DNA from: a virus
Taxonomy: Duplodnaviria > Heunggongvirae > Uroviricota > Caudoviricetes
Reading direction: 5' to 3' (one strand)
Virus record (IMG/VR): IMGVR_UViG_2700989171_000006
Length of the DNA: 4,874 nt
Made by a program: the position numbers and the translations under genes. Under the pieces are notes generated by a model, which worked only from the letters and a program-made list of their open reading frames with translations, made no database searches and was not told where the DNA came from. Below are positions 1 through 4,662 of the stretch, piece after piece. Every line of letters starts with the position of its first letter. Within the stretch, counting starts at the first letter, position 1.

Positions 1-31
1 AGCGGGCTTGTAATGGGTTAAGTGATAACAG

Positions 32-792
32 ATGTCTGGAAATATAGGGGCAAATCCAGCAATCATCAAACTGTCTTGGATAGAAGCCGCAGTGGATGCG
101 CACAAAACGTTAAATTTCGAACCCAGTGGAAGAAAGCGTATTGGCTTTGACGTGGCTGACAGTGGTACAGATAAGTGCGCTAACGTTTACCGTCACGGAT
201 CCGTTGTTTTCTGGGCCGACGAATGGAAGGCCAAAGAAGATGAATTACTGAAGAGCTGCCAGCGTACTTATCAGGCGGCGCTGGAGCGTGAAGCAGATAT
301 TGTTTACGACTCTATCGGTGTTGGTGCGTCTGCCGGTGCTAAATTCTCTGAAATTAACGCTGACCGGAAGAGCGAGAACGCATACGCGCGACGTGTGAAT
401 TACCAGAGGTTTAACGCCGGTGCTGGTGTGCATGAGCCAGATGACGAGTACAACGGCATCCCCAACAAAGACTTTTTCGCAAATCTTAAGGCTCAGGCAT
501 GGTGGCTGACCGTTTCAGAAATACGTTTAACGCCATTAACAACGGAGAACAGTATCCTGTGGATGAGCTGATCAGCATAGATTCTCGTTGTCCGTTGCTT
601 GAAAAGCTGAAACTGGAACTGACAACACCTCATCGTGATTTCGACCGTAACGGACGTGTGATGGTCGAAAGTAAAAAAGACCTCGCAAAACGCGAGATAC
701 CGTCACCAAACGTTGCTGATGCATTCATTATGGCCTTCGCGCCAATCGATACATCGCTGGATATCTGGGAACAGCTGGGGAGACAGGCCTGA
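32..792 (+). CDS. Terminase large subunit, C-terminal nuclease domain; reading frame interrupted (ORF pieces 32..571 and 499..792), so possible pseudogene or indel error
   Basis: The frame of 32..571 encodes motifs typical of the RNase-H-like nuclease domain of large terminases (RIGFDVADSGTDKCA, ADIVYDSIGVGA). The frame of 499..792 encodes the conserved C-terminal acidic motif (SPNVADAFIMAF) and ends in a TGATG stop/start overlap with the next gene. The two pieces are in different frames, with the switch needed between about 490 and 571. Stop codons occur in all three + frames within 11..47, so an upstream ATPase domain cannot be continuous with this ORF as sequenced. Confidence 0.75.
777..782 (+). 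promoter_or_regulatory. Shine-Dalgarno-like GGGGAG for the portal gene
   Basis: GGGGAG lies 9 nt upstream of ATG 792..794. Confidence 0.5.
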
Positions 793-2258
793 TGGCACGA
801 AACAAACAAGCCCTGCGGCGAACTGTGCAGGCCACAGCTGATGGTTATGAGAATTTTATTGCCCGAGTAGGGATGCAGACACCTAACCAGCACTCAGCAT
901 CCACCTACCGGGCTAATTTCACCAGTCGTAACCGCATGCTGGTGGAATGGTCCTATCGTTCATCCTGGATCATCGGCGAAGCAGTCGATGCTATCCCGGA
1001 TGATATGACCCGCAAAGGCATTCGCATCACTTCGGAAATTGATGCAAAAGATCGTGGCATTCTCGAATCACAACTGGATGAGTTGCAAATCTGGGATGCG
1101 CTGAATGACGTGCTGAAATGGTCGCGCCTCTACGGCGGCGCGGTGGGTTTCATCATGATTGAGGGGCAGGCACCAATGACCCCGCTGCGACCCGAAACCA
1201 TCGGTAAGGGCAAGTTTAAGGGGATTCTCCCGCTCGACCGCTGGATGGTCGACCCGGCACTGACCCGCCGCATTAAAGATATGGGGCCGGACCTGGGTAA
1301 ACCTGAGTTTTACGATGTGGTGACCACAGCAACGGGAATTCCTGCCTGGCGCATTCATCACAGTCGCCTGATTCGCTTTGATGGCGTCACGTTGCCATTT
1401 CAGCAGAAGATGACCGAGAACGAATGGGGAATGTCGGTTGTAGAGCGTATCTGGGATCGTCTTACCGCGTTCGACAGCGCTACTGTCGGCGCGGCGCAGC
1501 TGGTCTACAAGGCGCATTTGCGTACCTACAGCGTGGAGAAGCTACGCGAGCTTATCGCACTTGGTGGTCCTGCGTATGAAGCGTTGCTGAAGAATATCGA
1601 CCTGATTCGACAGTTCCAGAGTAATGAAGGCATGACGCTCATGGACTCGCGGGATAAGTTTGAAACCCATCAGTACAGCTTCAGTGGTCTGGATGACATC
1701 CTTTCGCAGTTTGCAGAACAGATTAGTGGCGCTGTTGGTATCCCACTGGTGCGGTTGTTCGGACAGTCCCCGAAAGGATTTTCTACCGGTGATGCAGACC
1801 TTGCCAACTATTACGATCGCATCAGTTCGTTGCAGGAGAGGCGTTTACGTCTTCCGGTGCGGCGGATACTGGACATCATGCATCGTTCGGAACTTGGCAA
1901 GCCGCTGCCGGACGATTTCACGTTTGAGTTTAACCCGCTCTGGCAAATGTCTGATGTCGATCGCTCAACGGTGGCGTTAAACACCACCAACGCAATCAGT
2001 ACGGCGATGGGTGATGGTCTGATGACACTGAAAGCCGCTATGACTGATTTGCGAGAAAATTCTGACGTAACCGGCATAGGGGCATCCATTACCAACGAGG
2101 ACATCGAGAATGCCGAAGATGAAGCGCCGCCCGGCATCGGCGAACCTGATGACGAACCGCAGGAGCCGTCAGGCGGAAATCCGGTATCGAACCAGCCTAC
2201 GCAGGATAGCGAGGGCGGTCGGAGACATCGTAAATGGTCGCTACGATGGTTCAAATGA
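792..2258 (+). CDS. Phage portal protein (DUF1073-like family as recalled)
   Basis: 488-aa ORF with GGGGAG 9 nt upstream. Its ATG overlaps the terminase stop (TGATG at 790..794). It sits in the canonical slot between terminase and the MuF-like gene. Size and sequence character fit portal proteins, and it ends in an acidic low-complexity tail (EDEAPPGIGEPDDEPQEPSGG...). The last ~50 codons overlap the next gene. Confidence 0.8.
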   Translation: MARNKQALRRTVQATADGYENFIARVGMQTPNQHSASTYRANFTSRNRMLVEWSYRSSWIIGEAVDAIPDDMTRKGIRITSEIDAKDRGILESQLDELQIWDALNDVLKWSRLYGGAVGFIMIEGQAPMTPLRPETIGKGKFKGILPLDRWMVDPALTRRIKDMGPDLGKPEFYDVVTTATGIPAWRIHHSRLIRFDGVTLPFQQKMTENEWGMSVVERIWDRLTAFDSATVGAAQLVYKAHLRTYSVEKLRELIALGGPAYEALLKNIDLIRQFQSNEGMTLMDSRDKFETHQYSFSGLDDILSQFAEQISGAVGIPLVRLFGQSPKGFSTGDADLANYYDRISSLQERRLRLPVRRILDIMHRSELGKPLPDDFTFEFNPLWQMSDVDRSTVALNTTNAISTAMGDGLMTLKAAMTDLRENSDVTGIGASITNEDIENAEDEAPPGIGEPDDEPQEPSGGNPVSNQPTQDSEGGRRHRKWSLRWFK

Positions 2259-2892
2259 CAGTATCACGGAAATTATTGCGGCGCTGGAGCGTTACAGTGA
2301 AATCATCACCCCCTGGGCGACAAAGGTCGCGGAAAACTTTACTGCGGACCTAACCCGGCAGAACGAGAAAGTTTGGCGGCAACACAGCAAGAACATCAGT
2401 CGCGAGCTCCGCAATCTTGTGGAAAGCGCTCCTGTGGGCCAGGTGATGCAATCCATCATCGCCGAACAGGTCAAGTACATCAAATCTCTGCCTCTCGAGG
2501 CCGCAGACAGGGTGTACGACATCCAGAACAAAGCGATAGAGGCTGTTGTCACCGGTGGTCGGGCGGAGCAGTTTGCTAAAGAGATTGCATCTACCGGCGA
2601 TGTTGCTAAGTCTAGGGCCGATCTGATTGCCCGAACGGAACTGGGAAGAGCAACGGGCGCGCTGGATATGGCCCGAGCGATAGCTATTGGCTCGGATGGT
2701 TATATTTGGCGTACAGCCGATGATGGCGATGTCCGAGATTCCCACGATCACATGAAAGGTAAATTCGTCCGCTGGGATTCACCTCCAACTTTGGACGGCA
2801 TGACCGGCCACGCGGGCGAGCTGCCAAACTGCCGCTGCTATAAAGAGATCGTGTTTGTTCGCGTTCCATTCGCAATGAAAAGGGCAGCATAA
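2110..2892 (+). CDS. Head morphogenesis / minor head protein, MuF (SPP1 gp7) family
   Basis: 260-aa ORF whose C-terminal half carries MuF-type motifs (IARTELGRATG, WRTADDGDVRDSHDHMKGKF, NCRCY). GAGG lies 9 nt upstream of ATG 2110. The start is uncertain (ATG at 2110, 2119 or 2149), and every candidate lies inside the portal ORF. Confidence 0.8.
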   Translation: MPKMKRRPASANLMTNRRSRQAEIRYRTSLRRIARAVGDIVNGRYDGSNDSITEIIAALERYSEIITPWATKVAENFTADLTRQNEKVWRQHSKNISRELRNLVESAPVGQVMQSIIAEQVKYIKSLPLEAADRVYDIQNKAIEAVVTGGRAEQFAKEIASTGDVAKSRADLIARTELGRATGALDMARAIAIGSDGYIWRTADDGDVRDSHDHMKGKFVRWDSPPTLDGMTGHAGELPNCRCYKEIVFVRVPFAMKRAA

Positions 2893-2895
2893 CCC

Positions 2896-4103
2896 ATGAA
2901 ATACTTTTTTGAGACCAGGCTCGGGGAAACCCGATACCGCCTGGCTGACGGCTCGTTGCTGTGCAAAGACGTGCCGATAGGACGAACAGGTAAGCAGCTC
3001 TATGGTGCTGATGACCTGCCAAAACTGAAACCCGATAAGTTCGTTGAAATAGTCGTCACGCGTTCTCCTGAGCAGGTATTCCATCCGGCCACGCTTGCCT
3101 CATTCGAAGGGATGAGCATCACGATCCTGCATCCTGAAGATGAAAACGGGAATGTGCGGCTGGTAAATCCCGAGAACTGGAAAGTGCTTGCTGTCGGGCA
3201 CCTCCAGAATGTCCGGCGCGGGACGGGTGAGCAGTCTGATTTGATGCTGGCTGACCTTATCGTCAAAGACGAAAGCGCCATTCAGCTTATCGAAGATGGC
3301 CTGCGCGAAGTGTCGTGCGGCTATGACGCGGAGTACGAGCAGACCGAGCCAGGTAAAGCCGAGCAGGTCGATATTACCGGAAACCATGTGGCTCTTGTCC
3401 CTAAAGGCAGAGCCGGAAATCGTTGTGCAATTGGAGACAGAGACACAATGGCAAATCAAAAGAAAAACTGGTGGAACCGCATGCGTGCGGCCATCAAGAC
3501 AGGAGATGCCGACACCATGAACGAACTGGTGGAGTCGGCTCCCGCATCGGTTACAGGAGATGAGGGGGATTTGCCGCAGGGCGTTAATCTCAACATCAAC
3601 CTGTCCCCGCAGCAACCACTACCGGACAAAGCACCAGAGATGGGCGGAGATCCAACCGGCGACAGTGATGATGACCTCAAAACATTACTGAAAGCCCTGC
3701 TGGCTAAGCTGGAAAGAAATGCCACGGGCGATAACGATAATAAGCCTGACGATAATCCGACCGGTGACGGCGAGGACGATGAAGAGGAAACCACGATTAC
3801 TGGTGACTCAGCCTGGCGTGCCGAAGTTATCGTTCCGGGTATCGATCTGAGCCGTAAGATGAAACCGACCGCGTTCAAACGCGAGGTTCTGGCTTCCGCT
3901 GACAAAACGCTGGTTCGCCAGATAGTCGGTGATGCGGATATCCGCAAATTACCGAAACAATCGGTCGACATGGCGTTTAATGCCGTGTCTGAGGTTGCCA
4001 AAGGGCGAAACACCCGCGCCACCACCGGCGATGCACAGCGCCTAAACATGGGCATGACCAGTATCGCTTCCCTGAACAAACAAAACGCTGAATTCTGGGC
4101 AAA
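2896..4103 (+). CDS. Large acidic head-assembly protein with a DUF2213-like N-terminal domain; putative prohead protease/scaffold; 3' end hidden by the N-run
   Basis: ATG 2896 lies 3 nt after the MuF stop, and 402 codons are readable before the N-run. The N-terminal ~180 aa resemble DUF2213 phage proteins as recalled. The C-terminal half is acidic and low-complexity with a helical-looking stretch (LKTLLKALLAKLERN). The gene occupies the protease/scaffold slot between the MuF and capsid genes. The ORF-track extension through X residues to the stop at 4240..4242 cannot be interpreted. Confidence 0.7.
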
Positions 4104-4222
4104 NNNNNNNNNNNNNNNNNNNNNNNNNNNNNNNNNNNNNNNNNNNNNNNNNNNNNNNNNNNNNNNNNNNNNNNNNNNNNNNNNNNNNNNNNNNNNNNNN
4201 NNNNNNNNNNNNNNNNNNNNNN
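4104..4222. other. Run of 119 N (masked or unresolved sequence)
   Basis: Directly visible: the N characters start at 4104 and end at 4222. Confidence 0.99.
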
Positions 4223-4529
4223 CTCTCGCCCGCAGGACTTAACCGTCGAACCGGTGGTCCTTAAATCCGATAACGCCTTCGCTGCCTATGGCCTGGCTGG
4301 TAAATACGATGATGACGGTTTTTTCGTGCCGCTGGCAGATGGTGATACCGCAGACAAGGTGAAGGGGATCTACGTGCGCCCTTATCCGACCACGTCGCAG
4401 CCGGACATGGTTCGCCAGGTGGGAACAGGCAAGAACTTCCCGGGCGACGCCATGAAGCGTGGCTACGTGACCGTTAATCTCGGTTCTGATTTTGATGCCA
4501 GCACTATCAAAAAAGGCGATCTCCACTGA
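4223..4529 (+). CDS. Small head-module protein (possible decoration/cement-type protein), 5' end hidden by the N-run
   Basis: The frame is open from the first unmasked base to TGA 4527..4529, with coding-like codon usage (CTG, CCG, GGC, GTG rich). GTG 4254 has no convincing Shine-Dalgarno, so the start is probably inside the masked region. Gly/Asp-rich composition. Location immediately upstream of the capsid gene. The functional label is a guess. Confidence 0.55.
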
Positions 4530-4562
4530 TGAATCCATCAAAGTGCCTCTGGGTGGATTCAT
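4529..4562 (+). other. Inverted repeat / potential RNA hairpin (9-bp stem ATGAATCCA / TGGATTCAT, extendable to 11 bp with one G-U pair)
   Basis: Arms 4529..4537 and 4554..4562 are exact reverse complements. The stem includes the last base of the upstream TGA stop and the first two bases of ATG 4561. No T-run follows. Confidence 0.4.
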
Positions 4563-4662
4563 GTCCACGTCAGTCAGTGGCAAAAACGTGGTGCTGACCA
4601 ACGCTGAATTCACAGGTGCCGGTGATGCTGACGGCAATGCAGAAATTTCCTGGAAGATTTAA
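4561..4662 (+). CDS. 33-codon ORF (MSTSVSGKNVVLTNAEFTGAGDADGNAEISWKI), either a small independent gene or the frameshifted C-terminus of the preceding protein
   Basis: ATG 4561 to TAA 4660..4662. Codon usage is coding-like. The same frame is open back to 4471 and contains an alternative ATG at 4495. The track omits it because of its short length. Confidence 0.3.
   Translation: MSTSVSGKNVVLTNAEFTGAGDADGNAEISWKI

Follow-up and report, generated by a model that had tools for sequence, protein, structure and literature searches.

The stretch of DNA analysed here, referred to as the window (4,874 nucleotides), comes from a SEN34-like (Brunovirus-type) prophage of E. coli/Shigella and corresponds to its head-assembly module, in which a portal gene is followed directly by a gene of the MuF (SPP1 gp7) family and then by further head genes (Table 1). 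The window differs from S. flexneri SFBU1023 and E. coli ECMA0423 by only two substitutions, and at least 80% of it is present in 336 complete E. coli genomes. Comparison with intact prophages revealed several lesions, namely the IS2 insertion, a 7-bp deletion and a 17-bp deletion (both frameshifting), and an N-run. The prophage of this Shigella-type genome is decayed, and the gene overlap described below is an intact relic in it, inherited and probably no longer in use.

Table 1. Features of the portal–MuF region of the window and of its surroundings.
Feature	Position	Strand	Remarks
IS2 end	1–59		interrupts the terminase large-subunit gene
Rest of the terminase gene	between the IS2 end and the portal gene		
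Portal gene (DUF1073/Phage_portal_3, HI1409 family)	792..2258	+	488 aa; ORF, profile matches, and RefSeq annotation with the same ends
Shine–Dalgarno (SD)-like GAGGA	2097..2101	+	8 nt upstream of ATG 2110; inside portal codons E436–D437
MuF/SPP1-gp7-family minor head (head morphogenesis) gene	2110..2892	+	260 aa from ATG 2110
Best-supported MuF start, ATG	2110..2112	+	formed by portal codons AAT/GCC (N440–A441)
Dual-coding overlap	2110..2258	+	portal residues 440–488 (frame 0); MuF residues 1–49, ending within codon 50 (frame +1)
Alternative MuF start, ATG	2149..2151	+	RefSeq/PGAP choice; without SD, not conserved
MuF codon CTA (Leu)	2197		34/36 in the overlap vs 6% elsewhere in MuF; keeps portal Thr
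MuF codon ATA (Ile)	2206		36/36 in the overlap vs 17% elsewhere in MuF; keeps portal Ser of ‘DS’
MuF codon TAC (Tyr)	2242		37/37 in the overlap vs 66% elsewhere in MuF; TAT would make a portal-frame TGA
MuF codon GAT (Asp)	2245		35/37 in the overlap vs 51% elsewhere in MuF; keeps Trp of portal L-R-W-F
MuF codon GGT (Gly)	2248		36/37 in the overlap vs 34% elsewhere in MuF; keeps Phe of portal L-R-W-F
Portal stop, TGA	2256–2258	+	last base of MuF N49 (AAT) plus first two bases of D50 (GAC)
ATT ATT (MuF I55–I56)	2272..2277	+	second codon (2275) is ATG in 30/37 relatives; non-canonical start in the window
Gene order after MuF			DUF2213 gene, then start of the next head genes

Profile matches identify both genes. 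The portal protein matches PF06381 over residues 55–402 (E=3.3e-106, 355 bits, above the curated cut-off) and TIGR01555 with 254.6 bits (cut-off 196.25). The MuF protein matches PF04233 over residues 137–243 (68 bits against a cut-off of 29.6, E=1.5e-18), TIGR01641 with 48.5 bits (cut-off 39.65), and, over residues 6–249, the ‘head morphogenesis’ family phrog_324 (E=9.5e-86). Throughout the superfamily, the portal gene is directly followed by a MuF-family gene (PMC5576092), and the same portal-then-MuF order, with portal and MuF domains as here, is seen in SPP1 (gp6/gp7) and Mu (gp29(H)/gp30(F)). However, the portal of the window belongs to the DUF1073/HI1409 family and not to the SPP1 portal family, and the pair described here, though ordered as in SPP1 and Mu, has about 149 nt in common, read in different frames. 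Among solved structures, the portals of Pam3 and E217 align with portal residues 15–452 only and are uninformative on the portal tail, since the alignment stops at residue 452. For MuF, searching PDB sequences with its profile gave no solved homologue, and an AlphaFold2 model (25-sequence alignment) reached a mean pLDDT of 52 and stayed below 50 over the first 150 residues, a confidence too low to judge the packing of the overlap-encoded helix against the domain.

The MuF reading frame is the portal frame +1 on the same strand. It is closed by a TAG at 2077–2079, opens at 2080, contains ATG codons at 2110, 2119, and 2149, and ends at 2892; depending on which ATG is used, the overlap with the portal gene measures 149, 140, or 110 nt, respectively. 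An earlier note on this DNA had described this frame opening, the three ATGs inside the portal ORF, and the portal stop, and ORF analysis confirmed its coordinates. The note had also remarked that MuF has no in-frame start after the portal stop until far into the MuF domain, which is correct: the next ATG, GTG, or TTG after 2149 is a GTG at about 2419, well inside the conserved part of MuF. Portal and MuF domains in a single ORF were not found in the window, where the frames differ and the MuF frame is closed upstream by the TAG. The conserved portal body ends near ‘...ENAEDEAPP’ (about 2132), and portal residues 440–488 are encoded within the MuF gene.

For comparison, 49 related loci were taken from a collection with one genome per species. 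MuF is in the portal frame +1 at all 47 loci at which a portal ORF was found beside MuF, and the loci with this arrangement span Enterobacterales, Burkholderiales, Acinetobacter, and others. The portal stop falls inside the open MuF frame at 46 of these 47 (the exception being locus L050), and the overlap is present in every one of the 37 Enterobacterales loci. Its length among relatives ranges from 8 nt, as measured from the ATG of the Sulfuricella locus L054, to about 170 nt. RefSeq annotates overlapping portal/MuF pairs in relatives (e.g. locus L002, with the portal gene at 2241..3707 and the MuF gene at 3598..4341, where 3598 corresponds to window position 2149). Relative to intact prophages (E. 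coli VL40, FDAARGOS_943), the stretch 2080–2260 is without indels; the only substitutions, at 2078 and 2094, lie in or just upstream of it.

Among the explanations offered in the earlier note, a genuine long overlap is borne out by the +1 relation at all 47 loci, by the RefSeq annotation of relatives, and by selection on both frames (see below). An indel, by contrast, is contradicted by the equal length of 2080–2260 in intact relatives and by the occurrence of the +1 relation in several bacterial orders. The homologues that the note had proposed to align agree with the overlap: no portal of close relatives stops before 2110, and the window is without a usable downstream MuF start.

Where MuF translation begins determines how long the overlap is. 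In the codon alignment, a start codon stands at the 2110 column in 37 of 37 Enterobacterales loci (34 ATG, 3 GTG), as compared with 13 of 37 loci for the 2119 column and 19 of 37 for the 2146 or 2149 column. The predicted duplex between GAGGA and the 3′ end of 16S rRNA has an energy of −5.9 to −6.1 kcal/mol in relatives with the same portal type; the corresponding values are −5.2 kcal/mol in L042 and −9.0 kcal/mol in Xenorhabdus variants, whereas the SD upstream of 2149 is weak (−2.1 kcal/mol). Positions 2097–2101 are invariant save for one A at 2097. All 32 aligned sequences have G at the portal wobble site 2099 and T at the portal wobble site 2111, within ATG 2110; among the degenerate portal wobble sites of the portal-only stretch 1799–2096, none of 94 is invariant. 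Nor does site 2129 vary, which is the second base of an invariant Arg codon that MuF has upstream of 2149. In the Xenorhabdus loci, which share tail and MuF but have another portal body, the 2110 column again holds an ATG preceded by a strong SD, and the database protein P0001, identical to the MuF of the window, starts at 2110.

Considering the start codon at 37 of 37 loci, GAGGA, the invariant portal wobble sites, and the Xenorhabdus arrangement together, 2110 is favoured over 2149; judged from these alignments, the MuF start is most likely ATG 2110, and the overlap 149 nt. A genuine overlap with a MuF start at ATG 2149, in which 110 nt would be shared and 2110–2148 would be untranslated in the MuF frame, is in our view unlikely. 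PGAP does choose 2149 in E. coli relatives (L002 and L003) and, in the SEN34 clade, a TTG one codon upstream of that column. The codon pattern is compatible with such a choice, being clearly of MuF type only downstream of about 2170 and still portal-like at 2112–2150, with the first 13 MuF residues weakly constrained. Nevertheless, a start at 2149 would lack both an SD and consistent conservation, would have to coexist with the invariance of the portal-synonymous sites 2099, 2111, and 2129, and is at odds with Xenorhabdus, in which the ATG and strong SD at the 2110 column are kept beside a different portal body.

Two further observations concern this region. The start and SD coincide with conserved portal residues (D-E-D-I-x-N-A), so that the two kinds of conservation can be told apart at two wobble sites only. 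No RNA structure hiding the SD or the start was found, the single-sequence fold being no more stable than shuffles (z=+0.88).

The MuF reading of the overlap is conserved as protein. The N-terminal segment ‘AE..YRTSL..IA.AVGDIVNGRYDGSNDS’ is recognizable in genera down to 58% identity, the segment encoded by 2170–2258 (AEIRYRTSLRRIARAVGDIVNGRYDGSND) is conserved where MuF as a whole is 58–70% identical, and no variation occurs at Y45, D46, S48, or N49. Diversity by codon position, taken from 32 aligned nucleotide sequences, is highest at portal position 3 as far as about 2126 and at MuF position 3 from about 2200 onwards; the pattern in between is mixed.

The portal reading has left its mark on the same nucleotides. 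At MuF codons for conserved amino acids, wobble diversity drops from 0.54 over the remainder of the gene to 0.34 within the overlap (Mann–Whitney p=2.5e-4), and nearly invariant MuF wobble sites make up 3 of 16 in the overlap against 0 of 106 outside; the wobble sites in this sample are near saturation, with a median pairwise identity of 66%. Five MuF codons in the overlap show a strong preference for one synonym (Table 1), in four cases the one that keeps a particular portal residue. T-ending MuF codons that would make a portal-frame stop number 1 of 247 in the overlap and 467 of 1435 (32.5%) downstream (Fisher p=6e-37); this p-value and the preceding one ignore the shared ancestry of the sequences and hence overstate their independence. 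The sole stop-prone exception among the 247 belongs to the Arsenophonus locus, whose portal stops early. Conserved RNA structure was rejected as the cause of the frozen synonymous sites, both on the shuffles mentioned above and on the alignment fold of 2160–2275, which gave −0.45 kcal/mol and no covariation.

These patterns show that 2110–2258 is under purifying selection in both frames. Because MuF-synonymous sites are nearly frozen and portal-frame stops are avoided, the portal tail is selected in the portal frame too and is not junk. The earlier note had suggested that the last 12 portal residues look like read-through of the MuF frame; this holds insofar as MuF dominates the codon pattern there, but not as a full account of these residues, given that the L-R-W-F and S/T/D-S sites are nearly frozen and portal stops are avoided.

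The end of the portal gene is itself tied to the MuF reading. About half of the relatives stop with AAA_TGA, others with CGA_TAG, and Yersinia with TTC_TAA; Morganella and Arsenophonus stop elsewhere. Where MuF N49 is encoded by AAC, the next portal codon is TAG, taken from GAT/AGC. The portal stop position is therefore nearly fixed, because the invariant MuF N-D-S offers back-to-back portal-frame stops. In the Arsenophonus locus (L037), the portal stops 17 codons earlier, and given this early stop, the full portal tail, as far as can be read from the genomes, is not indispensable everywhere.

We consider it likely that two neighbouring head-assembly genes of this SEN34-like (Brunovirus-type) prophage genuinely overlap out of frame and that the overlap is evolutionarily conserved. 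Translation of MuF most likely begins at an internal ribosome-binding site within the portal 3′ end (GAGGA at 2097–2101, ATG at 2110), and 149 nt would then serve both as the final 49 codons of the portal (frame 0) and as the opening 49 of MuF (frame +1). Over the 5′ third (about 2110–2170), the portal reading, an acidic ‘...ENAEDEAPPGIGE’, constrains the sequence most, with MuF contributing only a loosely conserved basic leader (MPKMKRRPASAN). Over the 3′ two-thirds (about 2170–2258), the MuF reading, corresponding to its first helix, dominates, and selection keeps the portal frame open plus a few of its residues (S/N/P/T/D-S and the terminal L-R-W-F). The pairing of an acidic portal tail with a basic MuF leader needs no special explanation, because it follows from GA-rich codons being read one base later. 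Finally, a weak MuF start inside the translated portal ORF may couple both genes and keep MuF substoichiometric; low MuF output by coupled initiation would fit the copy number of the SPP1 homologue gp7, which is portal-bound and present in 1–2 copies per capsid (PMC5576092). A search for protein-level support found no N- or C-terminal peptides or ribosome profiling, and the SEN34 paper is without mention of mass spectrometry; a literature search on MuF/portal overlap found nothing relevant.

The conserved portal C-terminal motif is probably a binding or docking element. It could be imagined, although we think it improbable, that the shared 149 nt specify both sides of a portal–MuF docking interface (the acidic tail with L-R-W-F on one side, the basic leader and first helix on the other) or, less likely, that, in the E. 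coli/Shigella clade, slippage into +1 at AAA_UGA_C occurs at a low level and makes a fusion anchoring MuF at the portal vertex.

Still less credible is a programmed +1 frameshift at the portal stop, AAA_UGA_C, which would join portal and MuF into a fusion protein, as the earlier note had also contemplated. Such a fusion would accord with the +1 position of MuF at every locus and with the stop of the window, a UGA followed by C in which the +1 codon after AAA is the GAC of MuF. UGA-C is a weak stop, and the +1 programmed frameshift site of prfB (RF2) is CUU_UGA_C; the window resembles prfB in its downstream +1 frame and in its UGA followed by C. Unlike prfB, however, the window probably has no re-pairing-competent P-site codon at this stop, as Lys-tRNA would re-pair poorly from AAA to AAU (a U:U third-position mismatch), and no SD stimulator 3 nt upstream, nothing SD-like being found just upstream, in ...CGCTACGATGGTTCAAATGAC. 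Nor is there a conserved shift site: of 32 sequences, 17 have T at position 2256 and 15 have C, and AAA_CGA_TAG, TTC_TAA, and other stops occur in its place. A shift at this point would also leave out the conserved MuF residues 1–49, on which MuF-frame selection acts and for which a separate, conserved start and SD exist.

Single-chain portal–MuF fusions do exist in other phages, and the MuF of the window matches positions 523–709 of the 717-position ‘portal protein’ family phrog_2662. The likeness lies in the coupling of portal and MuF modules and in the match to the C-terminal part of the profile; in contrast to these fusions, portal and MuF of the window are two ORFs in different frames, with a portal stop and a separate MuF start. 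One protein of 388 aa with MuF and capsid domains (P0113) was rejected as a fusion, being a MuF–major capsid deletion chimera on a short contig.

The least credible alternative is that there is no real overlap, either through an indel or assembly error or with a MuF start after the portal stop (ATT 2272/2275 or GTG at about 2419): the prophage of the window is decayed, and the annotators of SEN34, yong1, and vB_EcoM-689R2 place short MuF starts after the portal stop (for SEN34 and yong1, the ATG at the window-2275 column), but 2080–2260 is free of indels relative to intact relatives, the architecture is common to dozens of independent genomes, MuF-frame purifying selection and protein conservation are found upstream of the portal stop, the downstream ATG of relatives is ATT in the window, and a start at GTG 2419 would remove invariant MuF residues.

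With a genuine overlap as the preferred reading, the annotation of MuF deserves attention. Three MuF starts are in circulation in this family of prophages, which is widespread: 2149 (RefSeq/PGAP), 2110 (metagenome-assembly gene calls), and the downstream ATG (several phage GenBank records). The downstream-ATG annotations lose about 55 conserved MuF residues, and the comparative evidence shows that they are truncated and favours 2110.

Out-of-frame overlapping (overprinted) genes are classical in phages, as exemplified by lambda Rz/Rz1, phiX174 D/E, and the MS2 lysis gene. The portal–MuF overlap resembles these in having two frames on the same strand, an internal ribosome-binding site, and reduced synonymous variation. 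It differs from them in that the overlap is confined to the gene ends (49 codons of each), neither gene being embedded in the other and neither having arisen de novo. A conserved dual-coding terminal overlap is a known, ordinary kind of phage genome compaction, and no new mechanism is involved. Nonetheless, two essential head genes with about 50 codons in common, and with selection measurable in either frame, make for a clean, well-sampled case, and the analysis brings out a short conserved portal C-terminal motif (…LRWF) with a testable function. In relatives, the overlap measures anywhere between 8 and about 170 nt, which suggests that it grew by gradual extension of the portal tail over the MuF 5′ end, and this range provides a usable natural series for the study of overlap growth. 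At its short end, in the distant relatives Sulfuricella L054 (8 nt) and Bryobacteraceae L051 (26 nt), the helix corresponding to 2170–2258 is a plain MuF N-terminus.

The start of MuF, the SPP1-gp7-family minor head gene that overlaps the end of the portal gene, is annotated inconsistently, with one gene being given three different starts by RefSeq, by other gene-call sources, and by phage submitters. In the submitted annotations of SEN34, yong1, and vB_EcoM-689R2, which place the start after the portal stop (see the table), MuF is shortened at its N-terminus by some 55 or more conserved residues. In the window, the MuF frame is closed just upstream of the overlap by a TAG (2077–2079) that is restricted to the window's clade: base 2078 is A in this clade and C in the Escherichia coli prophages VL40 and FDAARGOS_943, a change that is synonymous in the portal frame. 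Several close relatives instead have a TAA at 2068–2070 as the closing stop; in others, the frame is still open further upstream.

Five Xenorhabdus loci (L025–L028 and L031) encode a portal protein with a different C-terminal body (…NGAQISSMVEIVSSVAAG…), yet the overlap-encoded tail joined to it (…SN.ST.DS…FLRWF) is the same, as is MuF. This combination of a different body with the same tail and the same MuF places a recombination junction just upstream of the MuF start; the swap of the portal body therefore also indicates that the 5′ end of MuF and the portal tail travel as one module. At the other end of the gene, the MuF C-terminus of the window (…VFVRVPFAMKRAA; ~2850–2892) is common to only some relatives, most having either ‘…VFP..HSY.A’ or, in Pantoea and Erwinia, extensions of at least 30 aa. 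These differing C-termini suggest a second mosaic junction at the MuF 3′ end.

The MuF gene of the window is intact, unlike that of FDAARGOS_943 (L001, the closest complete genome), in which a G-to-A change at the position matching window 2775 leaves MuF (3871–4614) as a pseudogene interrupted by a stop codon. In P0113, a database protein of 388 aa from an ENA contig of 2148 nt, the N-terminal two-thirds of MuF run straight into the major capsid protein (DUF2184); P0113 is apparently a deletion chimera lacking the DUF2213 and Gp24 genes.

Nucleotides 1–59 of the window are an IS2 end (100% identity to IS2 copies), and the gene for the terminase large subunit in the near-identical FDAARGOS_943 locus is cut by IS2 into two pseudogene pieces. 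What remains of the terminase gene in the window is frameshifted because of a 7-bp deletion, which, together with IS2, shows the prophage to be defective. The gene for ‘structural cement protein Gp24’ is split by a 17-bp deletion common to the window and the Shigella SFBU1023 locus. In relatives, the place of the N-run is taken by only ~66–67 nt of real sequence, so the length of the gap is arbitrary or masked.

Deposited MuF starts and sequence lesions of the window
Feature	Locus	Position	Remark
Deposited MuF start	L005 (SEN34)	3041	After portal stop
Deposited MuF start	L006 (yong1)	3038	After portal stop
Deposited MuF start	L004 (vB_EcoM-689R2)	3115	After portal stop
7-bp deletion	Window	~500 (ORFs 32..571 and 499..792)	Versus intact prophages E. 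coli VL40, FDAARGOS_943
119-N run	Window	4104–4222	Inside DUF2213 gene
17-bp deletion	Window	~4520 (ORFs 4254..4529 and 4492..4662)	Versus VL40, FDAARGOS_943
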